Virus record (IMG/VR): IMGVR_UViG_3300028048_000100
Location: 33,214 to 97,213 of that record
Length of the DNA stretch: 64,000 nucleotides
Source of the DNA: a virus
Lineage: Duplodnaviria > Heunggongvirae > Uroviricota > Caudoviricetes
Strand: one strand, 5' to 3'
Numbering within the stretch: position 1 is the stretch's first letter; every line of letters starts with the position of its first letter. Positions 5,353 to 55,727 of this stretch are shown one piece after another. The translations under genes were made by a program, and so were the position numbers. Below the pieces are notes generated by a model. It did no database searches. It saw only the letters and a program-made list of their open reading frames with translations, and was not told where the DNA came from.

Positions 5353-5376
5353 ACTTATATTGTTTTAATGGTTAAG

Positions 5377-5449
5377 TACCCCGGGTGCGACTCGAACGCA
5401 CGACCGGCGGGTTAGAAATCCGCTGCTCTATCCACTGAGCTACCGGGGC
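5377..5449 (-). tRNA. trnR: tRNA-Arg (anticodon TCT)
   Basis: The minus strand reads GCCCCGGTAGCTCAGTGGATAGAGCAGCGGATTTCTAACCCGCCGGTCGTGCGTTCGAGTCGCACCCGGGGTA. It folds into a cloverleaf: D-arm GCTC/GAGC, anticodon loop TTTCTAA (U33, TCT, A37), T-arm GTGCG-TTCGAGT-CGCAC and a 7-bp acceptor stem with G1:U72. CCA is not encoded. Confidence 0.75.
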
Positions 5450-6838: not shown

Positions 6839-7136
6839 ATAAAAAATATACTTCAGTTATCTTACGGATGTTAAATATATGGCGTCGGATTAAGTCAAAC
6901 ATGAAGCTCTTAGGTAATCCTCTGGGAGTTGCATAAGTCTGCCATTCGAACTGGAACTGACTGTCCGGATTGCGATTGGGAACCAAGTACTGGAACACCA
7001 AGCTACCCCCTGCGCCTTCCCATTTAGACTCAACGTGATCCTTATACTGCATTTCAAACGATCGCTTTAAGTTATCCTCAAACTCGATCTCGTGCATGTT
7101 ACCCTTCACAACCTTTGTGTCATCATCTTGTATCAT
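6819..7136 (-). CDS. IQD-leader paralog family protein
   Basis: N-term MIQDDDTKVVKGN; the promoter-like motif abuts its ATG. Confidence 0.7.
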   Translation of the reverse strand: MIQDDDTKVVKGNMHEIEFEDNLKRSFEMQYKDHVESKWEGAGGSLVFQYLVPNRNPDSQFQFEWQTYATPRGLPKSFMFDLIRRHIFNIRKITEVYFLYDTDVR

Positions 7137-9517: not shown

Positions 9518-10125
9518 TTCACTACGTAGTGTATTGTCTGATACGGTAGTTCTCGTATCGGAGACAGTTTTGTTTCGAATGGGATAGCATCGTTAAAGAG
9601 CACCGATAGAGCAACCTCAGAGTCTGCTATGTTCTCAGTAAGCTTGATAACGAATTGTATGCTATGTACTATATATGGATCAGTCAACTTTAATCCATCG
9701 CTGGTGAGTCCAAACTTATCAGACATGAAGCCTACGATAACACTGCCGGTCTCTTGCTTAAGGTTAGTGTCGTATATCCCAGTCTGATTGACGTTCTTTA
9801 TATCACTATCCACGCGGGTGAGAGTCTCGCCATAGATAGCATTCATGTCGCGAATGAACTCTGCAATCTTACCCACGAGGTTGCGATACACATCGTTCAT
9901 GTAAAATATAGGTTTGCGCTTTTGGGGGTTGGCTACAAACTTATCCGTAAACTTGAGTATGTACCGCCCGACATCACTACCCTCCTGTTGAAAAGCCTCA
10001 ACGCGGTCAAAGTCAAACACACCATCGAACGAAGTCTTGAACTGCTCAGTGATGCGGTGACAAACCCAGTATGGGTTATTCTGGAGATTGCGCTGCTCAA
10101 CAATATTATCGCTATCCTGGATCAT
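9514..10125 (-). CDS. IQD-leader paralog family protein (203 aa)
   Basis: N-term MIQDSDNIVEQRN; the promoter motif abuts its ATG. Confidence 0.7.
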   Translation of the reverse strand: MIQDSDNIVEQRNLQNNPYWVCHRITEQFKTSFDGVFDFDRVEAFQQEGSDVGRYILKFTDKFVANPQKRKPIFYMNDVYRNLVGKIAEFIRDMNAIYGETLTRVDSDIKNVNQTGIYDTNLKQETGSVIVGFMSDKFGLTSDGLKLTDPYIVHSIQFVIKLTENIADSEVALSVLFNDAIPFETKLSPIRELPYQTIHYVVK

Positions 10126-10159
10126 ATATCTATATCCAAAGAATGCAAAAATCTTTAGT
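10126..10159 (-). promoter_or_regulatory. conserved phage promoter-like motif
   Basis: The minus strand reads CACTAAAGATTTTTGcattctttGGATATAGATAT directly fused to ATGATCCAGGAT of 9514-10125. Confidence 0.5.
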
Positions 10160-10575
10160 TATAATCGTGCTTCATAACGGTGCCAAGGATCCAGCACACT
10201 GACTCTTTCGATTAACACGTTGTGCATATCATGTTCTTCCACAGGGTATTTCTCCTGTATCCGTTTTAAGAGCTGTATATAAATTGTGTCGATGAGGCGG
10301 ATATAGTTATCAGCTGAAAACTTGCGGACCTGCTTGTTGAACTGGAATTGTTTCGGGATGTTCACAGTTACATACCCTTTGTCTTCAAATTCTAAATCAG
10401 GATCGCGATCAACAGTATAGTCCGTGATGATAACAACGTCTACCTTCTTGCCCACAATAGCCATTGAGAACACACTTTTCACAGATAGGTCCGCATGTTC
10501 CTGGATCTCTTTGCATATGCGCATGTATTGCTCTAAATTACGCCCTAATACTTCATTGTCGTCATTTTGAATCAT
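10159..10575 (-). CDS. IQD-leader paralog family protein
   Basis: N-term MIQNDDNEVLGRN. Confidence 0.7.
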   Translation of the reverse strand: MIQNDDNEVLGRNLEQYMRICKEIQEHADLSVKSVFSMAIVGKKVDVVIITDYTVDRDPDLEFEDKGYVTVNIPKQFQFNKQVRKFSADNYIRLIDTIYIQLLKRIQEKYPVEEHDMHNVLIERVSVLDPWHRYEARL

Positions 10576-11146
10576 GTGAAACTCCTGTATAACTAAAGTG
10601 GAATGAATCGTTAGTTTCTTTTATGGTGCCGTTCTCAAGATCGGCTTGATCAATGCCGAGCTTATCGAGCATATCTAACATACCAGCGGCATTCACACCA
10701 GCAGTGTCGTAGATATCGCTAAGATGATTTGCTAATAAATGGGTTTTGGTCACCGATGGACCTTGACGCCACAATAACATACTCTTGATAGACCTGAAGT
10801 CCTCTAAGTTGTAGTGACGTTTACTCATATAAGCAACAATTTTATCCAATATCACAGAAGCCCAGGAGGTCTCATTTGCAGATACTGTCCAGTCCATATG
10901 AACCCATAGATCATCTGGTATAGTTACATAGATGCTCTCATCATTCCGATCCTTAGTCTTAAATGATATCTTGATGCTATCATACGGCCCATACATCTCA
11001 CTACGAGGATCGCCGGGATTGCTTCTTTTTACCTCTGTAAGCTTACTCCACAATATCGGCATATACCGCATAATCTCGGTGGTAATCTTGAGGTGATTCT
11101 CATCTACGCCAGATTTTAATATTTTCTCATCCGACTCTTGTATCAT
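10562..11146 (-). CDS. IQD-leader paralog family protein (194 aa)
   Basis: N-term MIQESDEKILKSG. Confidence 0.7.
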   Translation of the reverse strand: MIQESDEKILKSGVDENHLKITTEIMRYMPILWSKLTEVKRSNPGDPRSEMYGPYDSIKISFKTKDRNDESIYVTIPDDLWVHMDWTVSANETSWASVILDKIVAYMSKRHYNLEDFRSIKSMLLWRQGPSVTKTHLLANHLSDIYDTAGVNAAGMLDMLDKLGIDQADLENGTIKETNDSFHFSYTGVSHDSK

Positions 11147-11157
11147 AAAATTTGATT

Positions 11158-11196
11158 ATTGCACATTTATTTGCGATTTAACGCGCGATCTCATCA
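11158..11196. promoter_or_regulatory. conserved intergenic element TTGCGATTTAAC-N4-GATCTC (copy 1 of 3)
   Basis: attgcacatttatTTGCGATTTAACgcgcGATCTC. Near-identical copies lie at 30791-30827 and 50431-50472. Confidence 0.5.
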
Positions 11197-11246
11197 AGGC
11201 TGAATAGTTCTTAACCTAAAACGTTTTAGCGCATTTAAAATCAATT

Positions 11247-14077: not shown

Positions 14078-14098
14078 ATCTGCATAGTTTTATGTTAT

Positions 14099-14132
14099 AT
14101 ATCTATATACAAAGAAAGAGGAAATCTTTAGT
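14099..14132 (-). promoter_or_regulatory. conserved phage promoter-like motif (canonical copy)
   Basis: The minus strand reads GGGAATCACTAAAGATTTCctctttctttGTATATAGATAT ~20 nt upstream of the ATG at 14077. Confidence 0.55.
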
Positions 14133-14163
14133 GATTCCCTCCTGAATTATAGACGTTTTGGTG

Positions 14164-14739
14164 TTATTTCCTTATGACCTTTTCTGCGTGGTCTATTAGG
14201 TATTGATATATATCTTCAGTTGCTATTCTAGCGCTGTGATTTATCACATGTGGAAATACTGAAGTTATTACGTATAACTCAGTTTTTATTTTTCGTCGTT
14301 GCGCGATTGATAGATAAGCAGTATTTTTCGATGCGTTGAATGTGAATCTGCAGATATACGTATCTCCATAACTCACATCGAAAGAGAAATTGTCAGATTC
14401 TTTACCTTTATTTGTAGTGAAGTTTACAGTTAGACCTTGTTTCTTGAGATCTCGTTTTACTTCCCTAGCACCGCCTTGAATGATCGACATTATAACCGAC
14501 ATTTCAAGTCCTTGATTCCCTGTTCCTTCATCACGCGTAACAACTTCGTCTTTAAATTTCACATACATTGGTGATAAGAAATTCCGACTATCGGTTGCAG
14601 GGTTGTACGCTCTCACATCAGGAATCAAGCCCAAATGCTTTAATAATGAATCGCAAAGGGCATACGTTGCGGTCATGGTTTTTGACTTATCAAGAACCTC
14701 AGAGTCATTATCTTGTATTGCTTCCCATAGCGGTCTCAT
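14164..14739 (-). CDS. IQD-leader paralog family protein, long-leader form
   Basis: N-term MRPLWEAIQDNDSEVLDKS. Confidence 0.7.
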   Translation of the reverse strand: MRPLWEAIQDNDSEVLDKSKTMTATYALCDSLLKHLGLIPDVRAYNPATDSRNFLSPMYVKFKDEVVTRDEGTGNQGLEMSVIMSIIQGGAREVKRDLKKQGLTVNFTTNKGKESDNFSFDVSYGDTYICRFTFNASKNTAYLSIAQRRKIKTELYVITSVFPHVINHSARIATEDIYQYLIDHAEKVIRK

Positions 14740-15272: not shown

Positions 15273-15779
15273 TTACACATTATCTTCAATGATCTTGAGT
15301 AATTCCTTGTGTTTGAGAGCATGTCTGGATAGCTCAAATGGCATAAATCTCACGATGACATTATGACCGAATTTGTCTTTAGTCCTCACAACGTCGATGT
15401 GCCAATCTACACCGTGCTCCTCATCCTCATCTCCGAATCTCCAAGACAGTAGGTACTTGACTAACCACACATCCGGATTAACAGCCATCTTTTGTTGATC
15501 GTGCGATTCAATTGCAAATTCCAAATCATGATATTGCTTCTTGATCATTTGGTTCATCTTGCTAATTTCGAGGATAAACTGATTTGTCCTCCAATTGTCA
15601 AAGTACCAGGTTTCATCACCCACTTCTTTAACCCCTATCCGATTGTCTCGAGTTCTACGATCTAGTTTACCAAATACTTTTACAAAGCATTCAGCGAAAA
15701 ATGGATAGAATAGTGCTTCTTTAGATTTGCTATCTACCTCTTTGTCATTATCTTGTATAGCTTCCCAAAGTGGTCTCAT
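15273..15779 (-). CDS. IQD-leader paralog family protein, long-leader form
   Basis: N-term MRPLWEAIQDNDKEVDSKS; ATGA overlap with the upstream gene. Confidence 0.7.
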   Translation of the reverse strand: MRPLWEAIQDNDKEVDSKSKEALFYPFFAECFVKVFGKLDRRTRDNRIGVKEVGDETWYFDNWRTNQFILEISKMNQMIKKQYHDLEFAIESHDQQKMAVNPDVWLVKYLLSWRFGDEDEEHGVDWHIDVVRTKDKFGHNVIVRFMPFELSRHALKHKELLKIIEDNV

Positions 15780-20698: not shown

Positions 20699-20707
20699 TA
20701 TAGTTAT

Positions 20708-21283
20708 ATGAGAACACTTTGGGAAGCCATACAGGATACAGACGATAGAATCAATGCAAAGGCGGATAGTTATTTAGCTATTAGACGGATGGCTGAAGAG
20801 CTGATTGATACATTTGGAAAAGCTACGCATACAATTGATATGTGGAGTGGGGATGGTATTACGTTTGATAAGTACACACGTAATACAAAGGGTAGTGCTA
20901 TGCTAGATCCTGAGTCATACACGACACCTCTTCAAGACGTAAAAGATGAGGTACAAACTTTGATTGATAAATTCAAAGCCGGATTGAAAAAGATCCACGG
21001 CGTCAAGAATATAAAGGATGCATTCACTAATGATAATGACAACCGCAGCACTATTTTCAAGAAATCATCTATATGGGTGATGGTGGAATTTGATAAGAAG
21101 TTAGATATGCCCGGGTTCTCATTTGAATTTGTATTTGAATACACGTCTACAGGTCATAGAAAAGCAATCGACATACGAAATATACCGGAAGGTATTAACT
21201 TCGTTGAGATGTACAGCCGCGTATTCTCAGACAATCAGGATAACGTTAAGCAGTTCAAAAAAATAATCGAAGAATTGGTATGA
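20708..21283 (+). CDS. IQD-leader paralog family protein, long-leader form
   Basis: N-term MRTLWEAIQDTDDRINAKA. Confidence 0.75.
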   Translation: MRTLWEAIQDTDDRINAKADSYLAIRRMAEELIDTFGKATHTIDMWSGDGITFDKYTRNTKGSAMLDPESYTTPLQDVKDEVQTLIDKFKAGLKKIHGVKNIKDAFTNDNDNRSTIFKKSSIWVMVEFDKKLDMPGFSFEFVFEYTSTGHRKAIDIRNIPEGINFVEMYSRVFSDNQDNVKQFKKIIEELV

Positions 21284-21690
21284 GGACTCTTTGGGAAGCG
21301 ATTAACGATAATGACGAAACTGTGATTCATAACAGTAAACTCATCACAGACGTAGACACCCAACGCTATAAGCTGATGAAGCTATTAACGGAGTTCTTTG
21401 GAGTTAAGGAGTTTATACCTCACAAGAACTATCACGGCACGCTGATTATCAAGAGAACTAATCATCTCAAGATAAACGAATTTGCCAAGCAATTAGAGAA
21501 GCAACCTTTTGTTACTATGACCAAAGTAGATCGAGGGGATAAGTTAGCGAGTTATGGTTCAACTCTATATGTGAATAGTAATCTTGGTATATTGTGGTAT
21601 TTCACTTTCAATAAGGTGCTGAATGCCATCACCTCGGTACATGATAGTGAAGGTGTTCACATAAATCTATTTAACTACATGAAACAATGA
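21280..21690 (+). CDS. IQD-leader paralog family protein, long-leader form
   Basis: N-term MRTLWEAINDNDETVIHNS; ATGA coupling. Confidence 0.75.
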   Translation: MRTLWEAINDNDETVIHNSKLITDVDTQRYKLMKLLTEFFGVKEFIPHKNYHGTLIIKRTNHLKINEFAKQLEKQPFVTMTKVDRGDKLASYGSTLYVNSNLGILWYFTFNKVLNAITSVHDSEGVHINLFNYMKQ

Positions 21691-22172
21691 GACCGCTTTG
21701 GGAAGCCATACAAGATAGTGATGATAAGATCCTAAACAGATCAAAAGATATGCTTGGGAAGAATCAGCTGGAGGCGATGATGCTACTAATCATCAACCCA
21801 GTTGTAGAACTGATGCATAAATATCAGTGTAAGTACAATGGCCAAGATGATGCTACTAATGTATTCTCATTTGAAGAAAAGGATCACTACACCAATAACA
21901 TAGACTCAAAAGAGGTTAGAGATGCAGTGATAAAGAGCATCAAATCATCCAACTACAAGGATATCATGAAGATAGATACTAAGTATGTATTGTTCATAGA
22001 TTTCACTGATGAGGATATGCGAAAGAAATACCATAGGTCCGATAAGAAGTACAACGACCAATACGCACTGAACGTGGAAGTTACATTCCATTCAGGCAAG
22101 TGTTTTCTCAACGTATTCGGCAATAACACCTTCATAAGAACCTTCGAAAAATTACTAGATAAGCGAGCATGA
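21687..22172 (+). CDS. IQD-leader paralog family protein, long-leader form
   Basis: N-term MRPLWEAIQDSDDKILNRS. Confidence 0.75.
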   Translation: MRPLWEAIQDSDDKILNRSKDMLGKNQLEAMMLLIINPVVELMHKYQCKYNGQDDATNVFSFEEKDHYTNNIDSKEVRDAVIKSIKSSNYKDIMKIDTKYVLFIDFTDEDMRKKYHRSDKKYNDQYALNVEVTFHSGKCFLNVFGNNTFIRTFEKLLDKRA

Positions 22173-22666
22173 GAACACTCTGGGAAGCCATACAAAGTAG
22201 CGACGATGACATAGCTGCAGCATCAAGCAAAAGCATGGTGCCGTATCGCATAGTAGATATATTCTGCGATGTATTTGCACACATGTATCGTGATAAGGAT
22301 TCAAAATACGATCAAGGAAGTGATTATGTAGCTGGGCGTATACCAGTGTCTAACTATGACAAAATGGATAAGTATAAGACTGAGACTGAGCTGAAGAAGG
22401 ATCTACGTAAGTTCTGTAATAGTGTTCGATCTGAGTTTGCTCCGAAGGTGCTCATCCAGATGAAGACTAAACGAGATCAGATACTCAGAGTGGTAGATCG
22501 AAAAGACTATCGCATAATCATTTCTATTGGTAGCGCCACATATGGGCTAACAGTTCAGTTTGACACAAATCCGACGGCGAAGGGCGAGATTCCGGAGGTT
22601 AATTATATCCGTGTGATCTCGGGCAATCCTGATCTCATAACCGCATTCCATAATAAAGTTAAATGA
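22169..22666 (+). CDS. IQD-leader paralog family protein, long-leader form
   Basis: N-term MRTLWEAIQSSDDDIAAAS. Confidence 0.75.
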   Translation: MRTLWEAIQSSDDDIAAASSKSMVPYRIVDIFCDVFAHMYRDKDSKYDQGSDYVAGRIPVSNYDKMDKYKTETELKKDLRKFCNSVRSEFAPKVLIQMKTKRDQILRVVDRKDYRIIISIGSATYGLTVQFDTNPTAKGEIPEVNYIRVISGNPDLITAFHNKVK

Positions 22667-22667
22667 T

Positions 22668-23144
22668 ATGAGAACTCTTTGGGAAGCCATACAAGACAAC
22701 GATACTAAAATAGATGCGATATATGAAGAGTCTCGTTTGTTGCAAGAGATAGCAGATGGACTCAAGAAGCATTTCAGCAACTACTTGGAAAACGACTCCA
22801 AGATTAAGAAGGTCGGATCTTGGTGCCCACTTGGTAGGGTAGACGATGACTTGTACAACAAGGAAAGTATAAAGGATACCGAGGACTTCATGATTAAAAC
22901 TATCAAACAGATGCACAGGGATATCAAAAAGATACTAAAGAAGACGCTGGTTGATATTGAAACTTCAGTAGACAACTTCGGAGAGAATCACATCAAGCAC
23001 TACAATCTTACATTGTACATATCTGGATGTGAAACAAAGCACCTGATTCAATTTGTATTACACTCTAAGAGAAATAAATTCGGCGAAGAGGTGGAATACA
23101 TTGCTATTTGGACAAAAGATACTGAATTAGCCGATTTGATATGA
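22668..23144 (+). CDS. IQD-leader paralog family protein, long-leader form
   Basis: N-term MRTLWEAIQDNDTKIDAIY. Confidence 0.75.
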   Translation: MRTLWEAIQDNDTKIDAIYEESRLLQEIADGLKKHFSNYLENDSKIKKVGSWCPLGRVDDDLYNKESIKDTEDFMIKTIKQMHRDIKKILKKTLVDIETSVDNFGENHIKHYNLTLYISGCETKHLIQFVLHSKRNKFGEEVEYIAIWTKDTELADLI

Positions 23145-23602
23145 GAACACTCTGGGAAGCAATAAATGATAACGACGATAAGGTACTAGACGGAGCTGAT
23201 CTAGCCATGCTTGGTGCAGATGTTAAACGCGCTATTGAAAGCGTATATGGGCAGCTGTCACCAGATGAGGGTCGCCATGCTCGTCCTAAGTTAGTAGGTG
23301 AAGTAGGAGAGAAATACTTCCAGGATTACGAGTACAGCAAGAAATCCGGTAAGATGACTTATATTCATACTGATGGCACTGTTGTTCGAATCATGAAGAA
23401 TGCCCGAAGCAAAGGCATAGACGTGAAGATGGAGAAGTCAGATCACCACTACAGTGAAGTGGATGAACGCAAATACTATATGACATTCACTAGAAATGAT
23501 GTGAAGATAGAATTAACAATCATCGCCGACTCAACACGTAAATATGGAGTAGATACCATTGGCGTGTGGGCTGATGATGATGTCAAAAAATACCTACAAT
23601 AA
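23141..23602 (+). CDS. IQD-leader paralog family protein, long-leader form
   Basis: N-term MRTLWEAINDNDDKVLDGA. Confidence 0.75.
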   Translation: MRTLWEAINDNDDKVLDGADLAMLGADVKRAIESVYGQLSPDEGRHARPKLVGEVGEKYFQDYEYSKKSGKMTYIHTDGTVVRIMKNARSKGIDVKMEKSDHHYSEVDERKYYMTFTRNDVKIELTIIADSTRKYGVDTIGVWADDDVKKYLQ

Positions 23603-26676: not shown

Positions 26677-27011
26677 TAGTCATATTTAAAATCAAACAAC
26701 ACATCAATAGCTCCGCAACCAGCTGCAGCATTCATCACCTGGGTTGCAAATTTTTTAGCGCATTCTTCTTCACTTAGATCAAAATCATAGTAAATATTTT
26801 CTCTCCTGAGGAGTTTGAACCCATTAGAGTAGCAACCTAGAGGAGCCGGAGGATTGGGTACAAAGTATCTCACGTCTGCCGCACTAAATAAGAGATTAGA
26901 CTTCTCATGATGTAGCCGATGGAAGTGAACAGCATGTTCGTATGCCCGCTGGTATATCTTATATTGATCACCTCGAGCATTAGCAATACTTTTGTCCGAA
27001 TCTTGTATCAT
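26676..27011 (-). CDS. IQD-leader paralog family protein
   Basis: N-term MIQDSDKSIANAR; the promoter motif abuts its ATG. Confidence 0.7.
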   Translation of the reverse strand: MIQDSDKSIANARGDQYKIYQRAYEHAVHFHRLHHEKSNLLFSAADVRYFVPNPPAPLGCYSNGFKLLRRENIYYDFDLSEEECAKKFATQVMNAAAGCGAIDVLFDFKYD

Positions 27012-27045
27012 GTATCTATATACAAAGAAAACGAAAAACTTTAGG
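27012..27045 (-). promoter_or_regulatory. conserved phage promoter-like motif
   Basis: The minus strand reads CCTAAAGTTTTTCgttttctttGTATATAGATAC directly fused to ATGATACAAGAT. Confidence 0.5.
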
Positions 27046-27723: not shown

Positions 27724-28162
27724 AGTTCCTGAGATACTTTTCAATTATGTTCGTTATAGCTGCACTTTTATCCATCGCATCTCTGTTGATGGATTCAAGT
27801 GTGAACTCATTACTTCTTATTTCAGCAGCCAAATTAGCAGCTTTGACAAAATATTCCAGTTGGCCTTGATTGTACATAGATACTGTTTCACTGAGGGATC
27901 CTGAGTCTATGTATGAGTCGCCGTATTTAGTTGTCACATATTTGGGGTAGTATATATGCCCTCCGAACATGCGCGGATACTCTTTAATTGAACTGAACGT
28001 CTCAAAAACCACACAATCGTATCCAGCCTTGTCCTTGAATATCCATCTATTTCCAGATTCGGTCATCTCATATTCAAAGCCATGGCTGAAAAGGCTCTCA
28101 TTAGTTATCGGTAAGTTATCGATAATGTCCTGTTCAACTTGCTCATCAGTATCTTGTATCAT
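27704..28162 (-). CDS. IQD-leader paralog family protein (152 aa); intact copy of a tandem duplicate
   Basis: N-term MIQDTDEQVEQDIIDNLPITNESLF. The body is homologous to the split ORFs at 28167-28581. Confidence 0.7.
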   Translation of the reverse strand: MIQDTDEQVEQDIIDNLPITNESLFSHGFEYEMTESGNRWIFKDKAGYDCVVFETFSSIKEYPRMFGGHIYYPKYVTTKYGDSYIDSGSLSETVSMYNQGQLEYFVKAANLAAEIRSNEFTLESINRDAMDKSAAITNIIEKYLRNYDPRRR

Positions 28163-28166
28163 AACG

Positions 28167-28581
28167 TCACCCTTTCCAAAGGTAATCGGTTATTTCCTCG
28201 TTTAACTCCTTACTCTCTTGGGCAATGTACATTCTCAGTTTAGCAGCACGATGAGCTAATCTGATAAAACGCTCAAGTTGACCCTTCGTATATAAGTATG
28301 TTTTTCTAGTGTCTGATTTGACTGACCCTGGGCCTATCGAATGCTGCAACTGAGGGTAGGGGGATATTACATACGAGTTTACGTGGATAACCGTTTATCA
28401 AGCTGTCTCGTATGAGAAGTACATTCTCGTACCCAGATACATCTTTATAGACCCAACAGTTTTCAGGATTGGTGTTTGATATTCCTTTAAAATACAACCC
28501 ATTCCTGAAAAGATCGGCGTTTGTTATAGGCAGGTTATCTATAACATCTTTTTCCACTTGTTCATCACTTGCTTGTATCAT
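28167..28581 (-). pseudogene. frameshifted tandem duplicate of the 27704-28162 gene (IQD-leader family)
   Basis: ORF 28306-28581 (MIQASDEQVEKDVIDNLPITNADLF…GYPRKL) aligns to the N-terminal half of 27704-28162. ORF 28167-28349, in another frame (…GQLERFIRLAHRAAKLR), aligns to the C-terminal half (GQLEYFVKAANLAAEIR). The two frames overlap at 28306-28349. Confidence 0.5.
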
Positions 28582-28934
28582 AACACCACCTCCGTTACTA
28601 ATACCCTCATCTTACCACGCATATGACTATATCCTCGATTGATTCCACGGACATCGTATTGTCTGTTATATCGAGACCGAACATGCACTGTTTTGCCTAT
28701 GAGTACTATATCTTTTCTCGACATCCCTATAGGAGTCTCGTCAAAAATCACATCATCAGGATCCGCGTACACAGCCCAGGCTATAGGTGTCGATTGGAGA
28801 TCTACATATTGCTTATCTGATGCAAGCATATCCACAACCTCCATACCCAAGCTGTCGCGCAAGAACTCTTCAGTGAGGCGAAACATCTTACTATCTCGTT
28901 CTTCTAATATGTCCTTGTCATTTTGCTGAATCAT
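28578..28934 (-). CDS. IQD-leader paralog family protein (variant MIQQNDKDIL)
   Basis: N-term MIQQNDKDILEER. Confidence 0.65.
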   Translation of the reverse strand: MIQQNDKDILEERDSKMFRLTEEFLRDSLGMEVVDMLASDKQYVDLQSTPIAWAVYADPDDVIFDETPIGMSRKDIVLIGKTVHVRSRYNRQYDVRGINRGYSHMRGKMRVLVTEVVL

Positions 28935-30117: not shown

Positions 30118-30139
30118 AGTGTTTGCATATTTAATTGTT

Positions 30140-30173
30140 ATATCTATATACAAACAAAAAGGAAATCTTTAGT
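30140..30173 (-). promoter_or_regulatory. conserved phage promoter-like motif (canonical copy)
   Basis: The minus strand reads GGGAATCACTAAAGATTTCctttttgtttGTATATAGATAT. Confidence 0.55.
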
Positions 30174-30181
30174 GATTCCCT

Positions 30182-30766
30182 TTAAATTTCATGCACATCA
30201 ATTATACTTTCGAGTGACATTTTGCGATGGTTGAGATCGCCCTTGATCTCATATCCGAAATTGATATAGCCTTCTTTGCAAAGCTCATCAAACAATTCCT
30301 TCATAATCCGGTCAATCTCCTTTTGATATTCCGCATCTGTACTTCTGCAACCATCTTTGACCAAACCAAACTCAACAGGGACATAACAAATGACTACTTC
30401 CGGGTTCTTCTCAAGCCATCTCTTTACTCGTCTCTTCTGCAACCAAGCCTCAAACACGAGCTTCATCTTCTCACCGCGAGAGAACGGACTGTAGTAGTCC
30501 ACCTTCTTGTGACGTGCCAAATAGGTTGTATATGCACATACATCGATTATTGAACGCGTAGACAAGAAGAAATTGCTTTCATCCAAAGCTTTCATATAAT
30601 CTTTAAATATTCGACGCTGTGTACTTGCGTTACCCTCTTTATTACTTGCCCCGCCATGAGCGATGACATTTCGAGCTATACCATCTATGATATCACACCG
30701 GTCTCTGAACAAGTTAGCGAGGGTTGTTTTGCCGGTGCCCTGTGCTCCTAATAAACATATCTTCAT
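30182..30766 (-). CDS. P-loop NTPase / kinase-like protein
   Basis: Walker A 'LLGAQGTGKTTL' at the N-terminus of a 194-aa protein. Confidence 0.55.
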   Translation of the reverse strand: MKICLLGAQGTGKTTLANLFRDRCDIIDGIARNVIAHGGASNKEGNASTQRRIFKDYMKALDESNFFLSTRSIIDVCAYTTYLARHKKVDYYSPFSRGEKMKLVFEAWLQKRRVKRWLEKNPEVVICYVPVEFGLVKDGCRSTDAEYQKEIDRIMKELFDELCKEGYINFGYEIKGDLNHRKMSLESIIDVHEI

Positions 30767-30790
30767 GACTGTATAATAAAAATTACGTTA

Positions 30791-30865
30791 TTGCGCGTTT
30801 ATTTGCGATTTAACAAAAGATCTCCGCAAAGTAATATAAGTCATTACTTAAAGCGGAGATCTTTT
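30791..30865. promoter_or_regulatory. conserved element TTGCGATTTAAC-N4-GATCTC (copy 2) embedded in a 13-bp perfect hairpin
   Basis: ttgcgcgtttatTTGCGATTTAACaaaaGATCTCcgc … gcgGAGATCtttt. The stem is 30815-30827 / 30853-30865, with an inner 7-bp hairpin aagtaat/attactt. Confidence 0.5.
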
Positions 30866-31074
30866 TATATACGCGAGATTTTTAAGTTCGGATGATTCTC
30901 GCCAATCTGGATTATCTTGGATCCAGTATCTACTGAGAACACAATCTCGTTTCCTTCTATGCTATAGTCGCAAACAGTGCCGTCCAGGTTCAGCGGGATG
31001 ATACACTCACAATGAAAATGGAAGCGCTTGCCTAGCATACTCTTGGCTAGATAGTCTTTTATCGGTTCTTCCAT
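30865..31074 (-). CDS. small hypothetical protein (69 aa)
   Basis: ORF coupled to the neighbouring gene. Confidence 0.35.
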   Translation of the reverse strand: MEEPIKDYLAKSMLGKRFHFHCECIIPLNLDGTVCDYSIEGNEIVFSVDTGSKIIQIGENHPNLKISRI

Positions 31075-38243: not shown

Positions 38244-38834
38244 TCAATCTAACATCCAAATCTCTTCTGGTACTGATATTTCATATGTCCAACTCAGAGC
38301 TTTGAAGTCCATGCGATACTCTTTATTAGATTTTGTACCAGGACGTTTATCGTATGGTTTTTGGGCGTGTTTATCACGGAACCATACTCTAAATTGAATT
38401 TCCAGTCCACACACCTTGTATATCTGGTTTGAATCAAACTCTTTACTAGTCTTTTCAAACTCGACGTGTTTAGATTTTAGGTACTTTTCAAAACCTTCTC
38501 TCAATGCAGCACGGATGAAATTTTGGTTATCTATATCAACAGCTTCAAAGTCCTTGTTGTAATAGATGCTTGCATCATCGTGGTGAATAGATATGATGTA
38601 GTTCCACATATCATCCATATAGTACTTAACCGTGACACATTTCTTATTGATCCACTCATGACCGCGATTAGCAATAACCGGTTTACTCGCACCATTGACC
38701 TTACGAGAATCGATATGAAGTTGCTCGAAGAACTGATCCAGTGCTTCGCGTGCACGACGTTTGTCAATTTCGTTCTTGACTTTCTTGTCAATTACGTCGT
38801 CATTATCTTGTATGGCTTCCCAGAGTGTTCTCAT
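38244..38834 (-). CDS. IQD-leader paralog family protein, long-leader form (isolated copy)
   Basis: N-term MRTLWEAIQDNDDVIDKKV. Confidence 0.7.
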   Translation of the reverse strand: MRTLWEAIQDNDDVIDKKVKNEIDKRRAREALDQFFEQLHIDSRKVNGASKPVIANRGHEWINKKCVTVKYYMDDMWNYIISIHHDDASIYYNKDFEAVDIDNQNFIRAALREGFEKYLKSKHVEFEKTSKEFDSNQIYKVCGLEIQFRVWFRDKHAQKPYDKRPGTKSNKEYRMDFKALSWTYEISVPEEIWMLD

Positions 38835-39229
38835 TTCTTAAATTTTAACAGGAAATTTGTGTAAGTACCGCCGATCTCGAAGAATACATAATCAGCCTTC
38901 TCCCAAAGACCCTTGGAATTGTTGTATCCATAACTACCTACCTCATATAGCTCAGAGTCGTCAGCAAAGTAACTCTTGACGATCTCATAAACCTCTTCGT
39001 AGGTCATGCCCGGTTCAATACGAGCAGTAAGTATCTTAAACAAGCTATCCCAGAGTTTAGCAGGAGCCTTAACAAGCCAATCCAATGAATAATCTACAGA
39101 GTGTTCCTTAACATCCTTCTCGATGGCTTTCTTGTCGAGCAAACCGGACTTCTTGTTTAGATTTTTCCAAATGAGCTTTGCCTTTTGTGTATCAATAGCT
39201 TCGGTCAAGTATTCAGATAGACTTTTCAT
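38831..39229 (-). CDS. MKxL..LxE-leader family protein
   Basis: N-term MKSLSEYLTEAIDTQ; ATGA coupling. Confidence 0.55.
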   Translation of the reverse strand: MKSLSEYLTEAIDTQKAKLIWKNLNKKSGLLDKKAIEKDVKEHSVDYSLDWLVKAPAKLWDSLFKILTARIEPGMTYEEVYEIVKSYFADDSELYEVGSYGYNNSKGLWEKADYVFFEIGGTYTNFLLKFKK

Positions 39230-48056: not shown

Positions 48057-49268
48057 ATGAAGCCAACGCAGATTAGGAGAGGAATCAGCTCTTTCATAAA
48101 GAGTAACAAAGAAGCAGTAACAAAATATGAATTAGAATGTGACGATACTTTTGAGAATAATACTGATGATATCGTTTTTTTGTTGAGCAAATTGGATAAC
48201 TTAGACGACACTAAAACAATATTATATCGGGCATTATACAACTCTATAGTAAATCACGTACATATATTAGATAGCCTGGACACGGTCGTTACACTTCGTA
48301 ACATGGGTGCAGACGATTCGGATAAATCACTTAACTTCTATTTCGACGAGATCAATCAGATATATGAGAACAATCATAATGAATATGATCTCGTATACTG
48401 TGAAGAGAACCTTGACAAGCTTATCCAGATGAACCTTAAAACGGTAATTTCTATTGCGAAGAAATACCAGAACAAAGGTCTTAGTCTGGAAGACTTAATA
48501 CAAGCAGGCAATGAAGGATTGGTGGTGTGCGCGAAGGGAGACTCTAAAACAGGCAAGCCAAAGTACGATCCAAAGCGAGCTACGTTGAAAGAAGATGCAC
48601 TTGCGGATCTAGGTACTCTGCCAGACGACGCCACCGTAGAAGAGATCGACATGCTACTCGATAAATGGTTCACGTATGGTAAGCTAAAAAAGAAATTCGA
48701 CGAGGATTTCCCATCACATAGATATACAAAAGCAGAAGTGGAAGAATGGGTTAAGAAAAATGTAGTCAATGCAAAGTTCAACTCAGTAGCATCTATGTGG
48801 ATCCGTGCATATATACTCATGTCTCTCAATGATGAGTCACGCACAGTAAAGATTCCCAAAGCGGAAATCGACAAAGAAGCAAAAGAAACCGGCACTTACA
48901 AACGTGAGGAAAAAGTAGATATAGATGCTCCAATATCCAGCGAAGACTCTCGCACATATAGTGATATGTTAAGCGAAGAGGAGCAGGCTAGCAATATGGA
49001 GATCAGCGAAGCGCAAGACGAGTTCAAACGTGGTCTGAATAAGTTGTTAGATGGGGTTAAACCGAGAGATAGAGCGGTATTCCTAAAGAAGTTCGGAATT
49101 GGGTTGCCGAGGCCGATGTTACCACGCGAAATAGCTGAACAAGAAGGTCTGTCTATTGCCCGTGTATCACAGATATTTCAAACAGTCGAGCAGCAGATAG
49201 TCAAGAATCAAGCTAAATACGACGTGGATATTGAGAGACTGTTAGAATCGGCTAAAGCACTCCGATAG
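48057..49268 (+). CDS. sigma-70 family RNA polymerase sigma factor
   Basis: Region 2 'ISIAKKYQNKGLSLEDLIQAGNEGLVVCAKGD'. Region 4 HTH 'REIAEQEGLSIARVSQIFQTVEQ'. Confidence 0.75.
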   Translation: MKPTQIRRGISSFIKSNKEAVTKYELECDDTFENNTDDIVFLLSKLDNLDDTKTILYRALYNSIVNHVHILDSLDTVVTLRNMGADDSDKSLNFYFDEINQIYENNHNEYDLVYCEENLDKLIQMNLKTVISIAKKYQNKGLSLEDLIQAGNEGLVVCAKGDSKTGKPKYDPKRATLKEDALADLGTLPDDATVEEIDMLLDKWFTYGKLKKKFDEDFPSHRYTKAEVEEWVKKNVVNAKFNSVASMWIRAYILMSLNDESRTVKIPKAEIDKEAKETGTYKREEKVDIDAPISSEDSRTYSDMLSEEEQASNMEISEAQDEFKRGLNKLLDGVKPRDRAVFLKKFGIGLPRPMLPREIAEQEGLSIARVSQIFQTVEQQIVKNQAKYDVDIERLLESAKALR

Positions 49269-49285: not shown

Positions 49286-49576
49286 ATGAGCAGAAGTCTG
49301 AAAAACAGAAGATTAAAACACGGTGCACATTTTCACTGGGTAAACTACAGTTCCAATAAACAGGACAAGCAATACGCAAACCGATCCATGCGGCGTAACA
49401 ACCGCATTAGAATTAAACTCGGGAAAGAACCGTATCACAGCCTTAGAGAAGTGTGTGACAATTGGAATTTTAACAGCGATGGTGGATGCTCATATGTTAA
49501 CTTCTTAGGTAGCAGATATGGATACAAAGGAGAACCATACTCAAAAGAAGATATTAGACTAATTAACAGGAAATGA
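49286..49576 (+). CDS. small basic protein (96 aa)
   Basis: ORF with ATGA coupling to the next gene. Confidence 0.45.
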   Translation: MSRSLKNRRLKHGAHFHWVNYSSNKQDKQYANRSMRRNNRIRIKLGKEPYHSLREVCDNWNFNSDGGCSYVNFLGSRYGYKGEPYSKEDIRLINRK

Positions 49577-50421
49577 ATAAAACTAAGTACATAGGTATCA
49601 GGGGTCACCGTGGCTCAGGTAAGAGCACAGTGGCTTATCTACTAGGCAATATCATTCAGTGGTTACTGGACAACTACATGACCAAACAGGGTTTGAATAT
49701 GAAGTATGCAACAGAGCTTACTAATGACCCGGTATTTACGGTTTCTTATCGTGTTTGGTGTGAATGTATCAAAACAGATGAGCAATTTGCATTGTCAGAC
49801 ATGAACAGCAACAATGTATACCTCGAAACATTTGGTAACACACCGAAGATGCTGATAGAGTTATTAACTGATATGCCACATGAATACTTCAATTCAGACT
49901 ACTATAAGGATCATGTGGTAGTTAACATTTCAGACTTCACTTGGAAGGTATCTGAAGATCCATCTCATGAGGTTACATATGACTATGAAGCTCTATTGGA
50001 TGAGATTGAACGCGGAAACATCACCGAAGTAGATGATGAGAACATTTATCTGACACTTCGTGACCTTATCGTATACTTTGCAACGGTCAGCATGAAGTAC
50101 CTCGGACGTAGTGTTTGGGTTAAGACTGTTAAGTGTAACGAGAAGAAATATGACCAATATGAGGACTATTACAATATTGGGACTCGTTATAAGATATTTG
50201 CCGACATCAAGGCGCCATCCGAGCTCGACTACGTTCGTAACCAAGGTGGAACTATCATCTTAGTAGAACGCCCTGAGTTTAAGAAGAAGGCGAAAGGTGT
50301 ATCCACATTGGATCACGACGATCGCTGCGATTATCGCGTGACGATTAACAAAGATATCTTGGATGATGACGAGCTAAAATCACAATTGGTTGGGATTGCA
50401 ATAGATTTAGTACGAGAGTGA
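49573..50421 (+). CDS. P-loop kinase (dNMP-kinase-like)
   Basis: Walker A 'GIRGHRGSGKSTVAYLL' at the N-terminus. Confidence 0.5.
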   Translation: MNKTKYIGIRGHRGSGKSTVAYLLGNIIQWLLDNYMTKQGLNMKYATELTNDPVFTVSYRVWCECIKTDEQFALSDMNSNNVYLETFGNTPKMLIELLTDMPHEYFNSDYYKDHVVVNISDFTWKVSEDPSHEVTYDYEALLDEIERGNITEVDDENIYLTLRDLIVYFATVSMKYLGRSVWVKTVKCNEKKYDQYEDYYNIGTRYKIFADIKAPSELDYVRNQGGTIILVERPEFKKKAKGVSTLDHDDRCDYRVTINKDILDDDELKSQLVGIAIDLVRE

Positions 50422-50430
50422 CATGTAAAA

Positions 50431-50472
50431 ATGCGCATAATTCGCATTTTCTTGCGATTTAACGAGAGATCT
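50431..50472. promoter_or_regulatory. conserved element TTGCGATTTAAC-N4-GATCTC (copy 3)
   Basis: aatgcgcataattcgcattttcTTGCGATTTAACgagaGATCTC. It contains the 8-bp palindrome GAGATCTC. Confidence 0.5.
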
Positions 50473-50503
50473 CATTGAAAGTGATGATCTATATCAAAAA
50501 CAA

Positions 50504-50534
50504 AAAAGAGGAGCTTAAAACTCCTCTTTTATTA
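50504..50534. terminator. bidirectional rho-independent terminator
   Basis: aaaagaggag-cttaaaa-ctcctctttt, flanked by A/T runs, between convergent genes. Confidence 0.65.
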
Positions 50535-50822
50535 TGCCTTCGCGCCAATCACTGAACCAACAACTGCACAAATTGTACGCGATGTTAGTATGTTATAGAT
50601 TGGCCCATCCGTTACGCCTAGTGCTTTACAAATGGCTTTCATGACAGATGCGCCGATTGTTGCGCCTGCTAGACCGCCTACTAATGAGCCCAAGAATCCT
50701 TCGTCTACGTTGTTCTCTTTGATCGCTTGTGCAATCTTATCAGATACCTCCTCGACTACTTTCTCGTCAATTGGTTCGTTTTTTGCCAGGCTTTCATTTA
50801 GTTTTTCAGATAATCCTTTCAT
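50532..50822 (-). CDS. MKxL..LxE-leader family; glycine-zipper small membrane protein
   Basis: N-term MKGLSEKLNESL. The C-terminus has GSLVGGLAGATIGASV and GSVIGAKA. Confidence 0.55.
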   Translation of the reverse strand: MKGLSEKLNESLAKNEPIDEKVVEEVSDKIAQAIKENNVDEGFLGSLVGGLAGATIGASVMKAICKALGVTDGPIYNILTSRTICAVVGSVIGAKA

Positions 50823-55206: not shown

Positions 55207-55238
55207 TTTGCCTATTCGATAAAAAGAGAGGGAAGATC

Positions 55239-55272
55239 ACTAAAGATTTTCCCTTTCTTTGTATATAGATAT
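55239..55272 (+). promoter_or_regulatory. conserved phage promoter-like motif (plus-strand copy)
   Basis: GGGAAGATCACTAAAGATTTTccctttctttGTATATAGATAT. Confidence 0.55.
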
Positions 55273-55291
55273 AGAACCAAATAATTTGCAT

Positions 55292-55669
55292 ATGAATAAC
55301 AAACCGTTTAAAAAAGGTGAACTCGTTATCACTTATTCAGGTGATCGGAGAGAGATTCAAGTTGAGCACAAGGTCGTCACCAGTGTCGGTGAGAAGTATG
55401 TCACCGTCATGAGTGTTGATTCTGCAGGCAAGCCTTGGGGCCGTAAGGAACAGTATAGCGTAATCACGCGATATTTAAAAGACTACCAGTCTCGTCAATT
55501 GTTTCATGATGAGCAAGAACTTCAAGAAGATCTCAAAGAGAAAGAATTAGTAACTAAGTTCCACCGTTTGGCTGACGTGTATGGTTTCAATCGGGAAGAG
55601 ATCAAGCTTTTCATGGAAATCCATGAGGCTGGTATTGAGAACTGGAAAAACGAGCACTATAAAGCATAA
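55292..55669 (+). CDS. hypothetical protein
   Basis: The start is set at MNNKPFKKG. The track's earlier Met (55259) reads through the promoter motif. Confidence 0.5.
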   Translation: MNNKPFKKGELVITYSGDRREIQVEHKVVTSVGEKYVTVMSVDSAGKPWGRKEQYSVITRYLKDYQSRQLFHDEQELQEDLKEKELVTKFHRLADVYGFNREEIKLFMEIHEAGIENWKNEHYKA

Positions 55670-55693: not shown

Positions 55694-55727
55694 CCTAAAG
55701 ATTTCTAAAATCATCGTATATAGACAT
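55694..55727 (+). promoter_or_regulatory. conserved phage promoter-like motif (variant)
   Basis: CCTAAAGATTTCtaaaatcatcGTATATAGACAT. Confidence 0.45.

Follow-up and report, generated by a model that had tools for sequence, protein, structure and literature searches.

A conserved intergenic module, comprising a repeat array and a covarying hairpin, in a large T4-like gut phage and its uncultured relatives

Analysis of a 64,000 nucleotide stretch of phage DNA (IMG/VR record IMGVR_UViG_3300028048_000100, positions 33,214 to 97,213; the whole of this stretch is referred to as the window) showed that it carries three copies of the bipartite motif TTGCGATTTAAC-N4-GATCTC. As judged by comparison with related contigs, a portable intergenic module of approximately 90-150 bp, shared by a family of large uncultured gut phages, has this motif as its invariant core. 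The element is real, selected, family-wide and previously undescribed. Its kind is familiar, being a conserved linear element with a hairpin, and what is new are its architecture and its independence from gene orientation. It is read here, tentatively, as a self-contained small transcription unit in the orientation of the motif (+ strand), with an array of protein-binding sites in the DNA being almost as likely.

The exact 22 nt motif was found at positions 11171-11192, 30803-30824 and 50452-50473 (copies 1, 2 and 3), always on the + strand and always between genes. The initial annotation had described these three same-strand copies, placing the end of the third 1 nt short of the motif, and the exact-pattern scan agreed with it. 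Scanning the whole 64 kb window with up to three mismatches returned the same three sites and nothing extra, with no copy in coding sequence. At the same threshold, 100 dinucleotide shuffles of the window gave a mean of 0.12 matches and none reached three, ruling out a chance origin of the three copies. The TTGCGATTTAAC 12-mer alone, with up to two mismatches, was without enrichment in the window (12 matches against 6.7 expected), and the signal therefore resides in the full bipartite site. The half-repeats reported upstream of the core were found at 11159 (TTGCACATTTAT), 30791 (TTGCGCGTTTAT) and 50442 (TCGCATTTTC). Segmental duplication along with flanking DNA was ruled out, as the proteins flanking the three copies are unrelated and not paralogous and similarity among the copies in a self-BLAST of the window is limited to 31-45 bp; the copies are thus not recent duplications that include their flanks.

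The distance from GATCTC to the stop codon of the right-hand minus-strand gene was found to be 54, 40 and 58 nt for copies 1, 2 and 3, within the 40-70 bp first proposed. Copies 1 and 2 are situated 24 and 36 nt 5' of the minus-strand ATGs of gene 10562-11146 and of the thymidylate-kinase-like gene 30182-30766 (-), while copy 3 lies at a junction of convergent genes, in keeping with the earlier description of two copies upstream of minus-strand genes and a third that is not. The cores begin at 11171, 30803 and 50452, so that the spacings of 19,632 and 19,649 bp are within 17 bp of equal. The a priori chance of such near-equal spacing is ~0.1%, but the observation is post hoc; the position predicted leftward by a 19.6 kb period (on L002) carries no copy, and no other repeat with the same offset was found.

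Scans of viral and metagenome collections with the exact pattern and then with a relaxed pattern yielded ~20 independent true copies, chance matches among the relatives being told apart by their coding context. L-numbers denote element loci or contigs in these related metagenomic phages. Three co-oriented copies were present in one 130 kb contig and two in a 152 kb contig, and homologues of window proteins, among them terminase, an SSB-like protein and a helicase, are encoded at many of the loci. The module was found to begin with an A-rich -10-like hexamer that ends exactly 20 nt 5' of the core in 7 of 19 copies, against a background of about one copy per position. Conservation sets in ~12 nt 5' of the core, some 6-7 variable nt past this hexamer, with an array of direct repeats of 11-12 bp, two of them clear and a third degenerate (...GCGCRTTTAT followed by TTGCGAT[A/T]TAAC), the last unit of which is the core consensus TTTGCGAT[A/T]TAAC. 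Among the aligned copies the lag-11 identity of this repeat part was 0.345, compared to 0.286 +/- 0.017 in shuffles. An inverted repeat follows, with a 5' arm that starts within the 'N4' and takes in GATC(TC). Often a T-rich tail is found 3' of the hairpin, and often one to three extra direct repeats lie beyond it (e.g. CTTTTATATGCGATTTTT); such repeats to the right of the hairpin were identified in copy 1 (GCGCATTTAAA, at 11229), copy 2, L018, L065, L068 and L077-L080.

Box and hairpin are kept in the sub-families of L175 and L284, from which GATC is absent, and an essential dependence on GATC or Dam was ruled out by these. The bipartite motif of the initial annotation is real, with the exception that GATCTC does not stand as a separate signal: together with the 'N4' it makes up the base of one arm of the hairpin, and the two sub-families do without it. 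GATC is not avoided in the window (331 occurrences against ~235 expected from base composition). At position 6801 of L284 and 12437 of L289 (IMG/VR contigs of 33% G+C from phages that use Shine-Dalgarno (SD) sequences), TATTTGCGATTTAAC is directly followed by a 12 bp hairpin, the element being placed 11 nt past a stop codon and ahead of an SD and ATG. No protein similarity to the window was detectable in these phages, and their element may be the same module in another phage group, or a product of convergence.

The hairpin was found to change in sequence while remaining paired. Perfect complementarity between a copy's own arms extended over 9-18 bp in 10 of 20 copies, whereas arms crossed between copies paired over only 4-8 bp. 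A register-matched alignment of ten copies showed that 11 of 16 pairs had changed on both sides, that 82.5% of cells were paired (68.2% when shuffled) and that the stem covariation score was 0.417 (0.195 in shuffles, with none of 500 as high). The variability of the 'N4' is explained by its place at the base of a stem, where the opposite side changes along with it, and GATC is seen twice because it is a palindrome within the stem. A compensatory stem beside a conserved unpaired segment, as looked for in small RNA (sRNA) genes, was thereby identified from the covariation and from the comparison of own- and cross-copy arm pairing. The hairpins are flanked by A-rich sequence 5' and T-rich sequence 3', with a T-rich tail on the + strand in 6 of 10 long hairpins of the relatives. 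Given the pairing of own arms, the two-sided changes and these flanks, the hairpin may behave like a terminator stem. Little or no hairpin was present beside a conserved block in window copies 1 and 3, L001, L032 and L197; since the block persists without the hairpin, the linear block is the primary conserved unit. Copies with a weak hairpin of their own were found to have a canonical same-strand terminator 50-200 nt further on (copy 3, L053, L084 and L068).

The block is nearly invariant across phages with 35-55% protein identity, and is far better conserved than the proteins. Copy 2 and the L001 element are 87% identical over 55 bp, with one protein pair detectably similar (~35%). On L197, which encodes a thymidylate-kinase-like protein 76% identical to that of the window, the orthologous copy 2 block is identical at 34 of 39 positions and lies 36 nt from the ATG, exactly as in the window, with the hairpin and the remaining intergenic DNA replaced. 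In a relative at 58% identity a mere trace of the copy 2 block was seen at the orthologous site. The orthologous copy 3 site has decayed in a relative with a 79% identical sigma factor, and in a relative at 55% a variant copy 3 element is present two genes further along. Around copy 3 the window and L032 do not have the same genes, extra ones flanking the L032 equivalent, and other copies adjoin genes whose window homologues have no element beside them. With a conserved block at shifting sites, it follows that the block is under selection and that its genomic positions turn over. No gene family was found to recur among the neighbours of the copies, and no clean pair of filled and empty sites was recovered at indel junctions among the relatives.

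This turnover would suit a selfish or neutral small repeat (REP/MITE-like) that piles up where it is harmless, at gene 3' ends and convergent junctions, in view of the non-orthologous positions, the enrichment at convergent junctions and the decay of the copy 3 orthologue in a close relative. Such an origin is nevertheless very unlikely: the element lacks terminal inverted repeats, target duplications and a transposase/RAYT-like gene, the copies of one genome share the 30-45 bp block only and not the whole element, and the block is both nearly invariant across phages at the protein identities given above and kept at the orthologous site 5' of the thymidylate-kinase-like gene. A role as a packaging (cos/pac) element, which had also been suggested, does not agree with several dispersed copies per genome at non-orthologous places.

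Gene context was counted on ~19 copies, the element being written from TTGCG to GATCTC. Leftward genes flank eight of the copies and rightward genes 3-5; ~6 occupy convergent junctions, and divergent junctions have none. In 12-14 of 19 copies the gene on the hairpin (GATCTC) side has its 3' end towards the element. The 5' side is without preference: the nearest gene boundary there is a stop codon at 11-30 nt or a start codon at 24-95 nt. The proposed association with terminators is borne out by this, the convergent junctions being over-represented and the divergent ones absent. A promoter for neighbouring genes should nearly always face a gene, but the element would point at one in minus sense in only 8 of 19 copies, and in plus sense in ~5 of 19, and a simple promoter is therefore refuted in either direction, as had been concluded previously from the three window copies. 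Hexamer scans gave the same result: a minus-strand sigma-70-type hexamer pair (at least 9/12) overlapping the block was not found at any of the three window copies. A simple sigma-70 promoter of adjacent genes was ruled out on both grounds. A promoter of fixed geometry with a TATA-like motif after GATCTC was likewise rejected, as the distance varies from 13 to 26 nt and the orientation flips (L001 versus copy 3; copy 1 and L077 versus L059 and L079). The suggested RNA 3'-processing site on minus-strand transcripts is not supported, as 10-11 copies in relatives oppose local transcription.

The three window copies differ in how much of the module they hold. At copy 1, a sigma-70-like match (TTCTCA-16-TAAAAT, 11124-11151, +; 9/12, within the regional background) includes a -10-like hexamer at 11146-11151 (+) that overlaps, at 11144-11146, the CAT start codon of the minus strand and that ends 20 nt 5' of the core. 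The conserved block (11150-11192, +) consists of units ATTTGATTATT, GCACATTTATT and TGCGATTTAAC with core TTGCGATTTAAC at 11171-11182, GCGC and GATCTC at 11187-11192. Its right part (11193-11246) was found to contain a loop-type motif GAATAGTTC (11202-11210), a palindrome CTAAAACGTTTTAG (11216-11229) and the direct repeat GCGCATTTAAA (11229-11239), with no 3' arm complementary to GCGCGATCTC. The fold z-scores of this copy are +0.2 on the + strand and -1.8 on the minus strand, so that folding occurs in minus-strand RNA only.

In copy 2, hexamers TATAAT (30772-30777, +) and AAAAAT (30778-30783, +), the latter ending 20 nt 5' of the core, are followed by the repeat array (30782-30814, +; ATTACGTTATT, GCGCGTTTATT and TGCGATTTAAC, core at 30803-30814) and by the hairpin (30815-30865), in which 5' arm AAAAGATCTCCGC (30815-30827) pairs perfectly over 13 bp with 3' arm GCGGAGATCTTTT (30853-30865), as the initial annotation had it. 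The 5' arm consists of the 'N4', GATCTC and three further nt, the hairpin has an inner 7 bp stem (AAGTAAT/ATTACTT), and the 3' arm adjoins the stop codon of minus-strand gene 30865-31074. Fold z-scores are -5.4 on the + strand and -6.7 on the minus strand. A T-rich tail TTTTTATATA (3'-arm T's included) and the direct repeat ACGCGAGATTTTT lie downstream (30866-30883, +), and CTTTTATATGCGATTTTT is also found 3' of the hairpin in L077, L079 and L080, as in copy 2. The 13 bp stem is followed by TTTTT on the + strand and by TTTTGTT on the minus strand; its 25 nt loop exceeds the limits of the terminator scanner.

The copy 3 block (50427-50473, +) begins 5 nt past the TGA stop of the + strand deoxynucleoside monophosphate (dNMP)-kinase-like gene 49573-50421 and comprises AAAAAT (50427-50432), units ATGCGCATAAT, TCGCATTTTCT and TGCGATTTAAC, the core at 50452-50463, GAGA and GATCTC at 50468-50473. 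The palindrome GAGATCTC previously noted here is at 50466-50473, and the canonical terminator that follows is a bidirectional intrinsic one (50504-50530) common to copy 3 in the + direction and to the minus-strand gene 50532-50822. Between them lies a 16-mer (50481-50496, -) whose reverse complement TGATATAGATCATCAC equals TAATATAGATCATTAC of L001 at 14 of 16 positions in inverted orientation; this 16 bp TATAGAT-type segment thus has opposite orientations in copy 3 and L001. On the minus strand the 16-mer resembles the other terminator and TATAGAT cassettes of the window, and the minus strand reads TTTG-ATATAGATCAT at 50482-50497, as in that family.

Of the readings weighed, that of a small transcription unit on the motif strand is given some preference. 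Under it, the -10-like hexamer ending 20 nt 5' of the core would set an RNA start ~13 nt ahead of the core, and the RNA would have as its single-stranded 5' part the conserved 30-35 nt, in which two UUGCG-N-UUUA repeats end in ...UUUAAC and which would possibly act as a pairing or protein-binding platform. Full sigma-70-type matches in this register were called in copy 1 and L080 only, and in L080 a terminator was called as well on the same strand. The transcript would end at the variable inverted repeat that starts in 'N4-GATCTC', or at a canonical terminator further on (copy 3). The product would be an RNA of ~80-120 nt, or an RNA borne on a 3' untranslated region (3'-UTR) where a co-oriented gene stops 11-30 nt upstream. 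In the window, copy 3 would be a unit with a clean terminator, copy 2 one with its own hairpin and U-tail, and copy 1 one that has lost its hairpin, copies 1 and 2 being antisense to the intercistronic leaders of two minus-strand operons. The location of gene 3' ends on the 3' side, the convergent junctions, the absence of divergent ones and the indifference of the 5' side fit a stand-alone RNA gene without an open reading frame. In the L175 group, arm changes are tolerated as G.U pairs on the motif strand only and the + strand fold is the more stable by 1.5-7 kcal; in L284/L289 a C-to-T change yields a U.G pair on the motif strand.

The module resembles seed-and-terminator sRNA genes (Hfq/ProQ-type, including 3'-UTR-derived and sibling sRNAs) in its conserved 5' segment, covarying stem, A-rich flank and U-rich tail, and in its gene-independent intergenic site and sibling copies, with a ProQ-related protein present in this genome. 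This is a 125 amino acid protein (55292-55669, +) with a precomputed Pfam match to Phage_ProQ_C_like (PF24203), which may be relevant if the element is an RNA. FinO/ProQ family members bind terminator hairpins with A-rich 5' flanks (PMC9977716). Unlike sRNA genes, the module has no Rfam family, no clear -35 and a window copy without a terminator; its 'seed' is itself a tandem repeat, and further repeats lie 3' of the hairpin.

Several observations weigh against the transcription unit. A convincing -35 element was not seen in most copies when judged by the sigma-70 consensus, which may not be that of the host, and no Rfam family matched the element. Over all copies, the strand bias in G.U pairs and fold energy is not consistent, and copy 1 folds only as minus-strand RNA. 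As both copy 1 and L197 lack a + strand terminator, an RNA made there would continue antisense into the neighbouring gene; in the 3-5 copies where a co-oriented gene follows, the unit would be an mRNA leader and not an sRNA. Phage sRNA families are also rare a priori. Finally, the 11 bp periodicity on the left and the repeats past the hairpin are more typical of a protein-binding DNA array.

Such an array, in which the phased repeats TTATTGCGCG, TTTATTTGCGA and TTTAAC... together with the repeats past the palindrome would be bound by a sequence-specific protein, is almost as likely as the transcription unit. It could possibly act as the operator of a global regulator, as a transcription or replication roadblock at unit boundaries, or as the iterons of one of several origins. 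The regulator-binding site put forward by the initial annotation stays live in this form on account of the phased direct repeats. Besides the 11 bp period of the left part and the additional repeats past the hairpin (copies 1 and 2, L018, L065, L068 and L077-L080), an array would account for the few copies per genome with high information content, the uncoupling from gene orientation, the co-orientation of the three window copies and of the three in one 130 kb contig, and the survival of the block without a hairpin in copies 1 and 3, L001, L032 and L197. The reverse-complemented core GTTAAATCGCAA also agrees with the P1 parS core GTGAAATCGCCA at 10 of 12 positions, a lead rather than a test. 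Against it, neither a recurrent neighbour such as an initiator, ParB or regulator, nor a DNA-binding or partition domain among the ~60 window proteins scanned or listed, was found. Stems that stay paired while their sequence changes fully point to a nucleic acid hairpin rather than a palindrome read by a protein, and the enrichment at convergent junctions with none at divergent, promoter-rich ones is unlike an operator.

Iteron and centromere arrays (R1 parC, P1 parS, origin iterons) are similar to the module in having direct repeats of about a helical turn on both sides of a dyad, in their asymmetry and information content and in their independence of orientation; in R1 parC, 11 bp repeats flank a core. 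The module differs in its 2-3 degenerate units, the lack of an identified initiator, ParB or ParR gene, its dispersed non-orthologous copies and its covarying dyad. Neither an adjacent cognate gene nor a fixed position was identified among neighbour families, scanned proteins and relatives. Origins are usually unique and positionally conserved, whereas the positions of the element vary among relatives and the copy 3 orthologue has decayed in the relative with the 79% identical sigma factor.

A narrower version of the transcription unit, in which the copies would regulate one another, is improbable. Copy 3 would here be the 3'-UTR or sRNA end of the operon of the sigma factor and dNMP-kinase-like gene, pairing with the leaders at copies 1 and 2. 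Its canonical terminator lies 31 nt past the block, and approximately 25-27 of 32-33 nt of its conserved segment are complementary to the intercistronic leaders at both copy 1 and copy 2, in which the reverse complement of the block is located 24 and 36 nt 5' of the start codons of 10562-11146 and of the thymidylate-kinase-like gene. An antisense regulon of this kind would account for all three copies being on the same strand. If true, it would couple the sigma factor operon to two other operons and the genes downstream, with the ProQ-like protein possibly acting as matchmaker, and the '3'-UTR-type' and 'leader-type' copies of relatives would play the same two roles.

Among known elements, those nearest to the module are the PeSL (promoter-early stem-loop) and PmSL mobile regulatory cassettes of T4-type phages (Arbiol 2010; Comeau 2014, PMC4122927). 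Similarities to these include a short intergenic module in a large T4-like genome, a stem-loop with a conserved linear element, several copies per genome, a conservation better than that of nearby genes and, possibly, a location where related genomes differ. PeSLs have the order stem-loop, sigma-70 -35/-10, SD and ATG and are aimed at the downstream gene, whereas the present module is uncoupled from gene orientation. It also differs in having phased direct repeats and no sigma-70 hexamer pair on the gene-sense strand, and in its number of only ~3 copies per 64 kb. Hexamers spaced by ~17 bp were not found, and orientation towards a downstream gene does not hold throughout: eight of the 19 copies, copies 1 and 2 among them, agree with the PeSL order, and in 10-11 there is no gene in that direction.

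The element might still be a PeSL-type terminator-promoter cassette of the minus strand, an explanation that is unlikely yet ranks next after the array. The hairpin would then end the upstream operon, GTTAAATCGCAAATAAAYGCGCAATAA would be the promoter or operator of the next minus-strand gene, and copies like copy 3 would be recombination orphans. Consistent with this are the 8 of 19 copies in the order stop, hairpin, block and ATG between leftward genes, the block-to-ATG distance of 36 nt in both the window and L197 though the intervening sequence has diverged, the YTTGTTAWAT that follows every hairpin when read on the minus strand, the copy 1 hairpin in minus-strand RNA alone and the presence in this phage of a second, clearly gene-oriented terminator and TATAGAT family. 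PeSL cassettes are moreover conserved, mobile and found at indel junctions (PMC4122927), and gene content at copy 3 differs between the window and L032. Against the cassette are the 10-11 of 19 copies without a leftward gene, where the 'promoter' would fire antisense into a convergent or co-linear 3' end, while true gene-oriented cassettes of the same genome always follow the gene strand. No sigma-70-type hexamer pair was called on the minus strand at any window copy, and in the case of the thymidylate-kinase-like gene a motif of the common TTATTATA type is already present in the stretch from the block to the ATG.

The second family of the window, which looks like a genuine PeSL-type terminator-promoter cassette, consists of a terminator hairpin (GGGAATCACTAAAGATTTCCC) and then TCTTTCTTTGTATATAGAT(A) (also written TTTGTATATAGAT or TTTCTTTGTATATAGAT), 2-25 nt 5' of a start codon. 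Its members were identified at 10114-10162 (-), 14078-14141 (-), 27000-27044 (-), 30124-30181 (-), 55228-55293 (+) and, more weakly, 55700-55725 (+), always in the sense of the downstream gene.

Like lambda nut sites (boxA and boxB), the module presents a conserved linear box and then a hairpin with a variable stem. The least likely of the explanations weighed is a nut-like or attenuator RNA signal, whose boxA-like UUGCGAUUUAACAA and boxB-like hairpin would load Nus or a phage factor and control readthrough at operon ends. In 10-11 copies the block does lie 11-30 nt past the stop of a co-oriented gene and before a hairpin, as it also does in the L175 and L284 groups, which are unrelated, and a module in phage groups with different translation signals (L284 has SD) would suit a universal host factor. 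The core is also alike at 11 of 13 positions to the Escherichia coli rrn boxA, UGCUCUUUAACAA, a lead and not a test. A sense orientation is not general, as 8 of 19 copies (window copies 1 and 2 included) lie on the non-transcribed strand of their gene cluster. The strand is thus wrong for nut in about 40% of copies, no N-like gene was identified, and three tandem repeats are foreign to nut sites.

Other known systems were compared. Lambda CII sites, TTGC-N6-TTGC, occur at the antisense promoters pRE and paQ; the module shares with them TTGC direct repeats at elements that are possibly antisense to lytic genes, a lead only, and it differs in a TTGC spacing of N8 rather than N6, which is itself seen in few copies only, with no Q- or CII-like gene identified. 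An integron attC site was rejected, as ATTTAAC fits RYYYAAC but the 3' partner is TTTTATAT or TTTTTATA, without GTT. A solitary CRISPR repeat (RNA anti-CRISPR) was also rejected, since 185,579 species genomes gave single chance or coding matches and no arrays. The species genomes offered no clue to the host, their matches being chance or coding ones (L144 and L148 lie inside a glycosyltransferase gene). Searches of the literature for the motif gave unrelated primers only, and no cultured or annotated phage was found to carry the element.

The window (41% G+C, ~94 tightly packed genes) is from a novel large T4-like gut phage with its own sigma factor. The T4-type large terminase has its best identity, 31%, to Tenacibaculum and Sphingomonas jumbo phages; other genes identified encode helicases, an exonuclease and nucleotide kinases, and a tRNA-Arg (anticodon TCT; 5376-5449, -) is located in a long intergenic gap, of which the minus-strand cluster has few. 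The sigma-70-family factor (48057-49268, +; 403 amino acids) has more than 1,100 metagenomic homologues (E<1e-10) on contigs of up to 226 kb, and the order helicase, sigma factor, small open reading frame and dNMP-kinase-like gene is conserved in relatives. Identical and related contigs were from gut metagenomes and no nucleotide match to the window was found among GenBank phages, which together with the number of sigma homologues indicates an abundant but uncultured phage family.

An SD-like tetramer at -20 to -5 was found for 4 of 94 genes, and many start codons are preceded at 5-20 nt by a TTATTATA/TATAAT-like motif, which suggests that leaders are short or lacking and that SD pairing is not used by the host. 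Unrelated minus-strand genes starting at 7136, 11146 and 27011 share the same ATGATACAAGA (M-I-Q-D/E), and these first codons appear to belong to a repeated upstream cassette. Eight genes of 150-190 codons have 5' ends that are 82-94% identical over ~40 nt (14696-14739, 15736-15779 and 38797-38835 on the minus strand; 20706-20747, 21686-21726, 22169-22207, 22664-22702 and 23137-23180 on the + strand), indicating a family of paralogues that share a conserved N-terminus; five of these are in tandem at 20.7-23.6 kb. An 852 amino acid gene product is encoded with an internal 67 bp tandem duplication (82% identical; 2035-2101 and 2113-2179), and a 95 bp repeat (74% identical) is present between two small adjacent minus-strand genes (28077-28171 and 28496-28590).

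The module is a strongly selected non-coding element in abundant uncultured gut phages, whose non-coding regulation is essentially unexplored. Its ~35 conserved nt and the three defined loci offer a handle for transcript mapping and pull-down, and the motif can serve as a metagenome marker of the phage family. If it specifies a small RNA family, it would be among the few phage sRNA families defined comparatively, with a link to the phage ProQ-like protein possible. If it is instead a protein-binding array, it would mark boundaries of transcription or replication that are read by an as yet unnamed factor.

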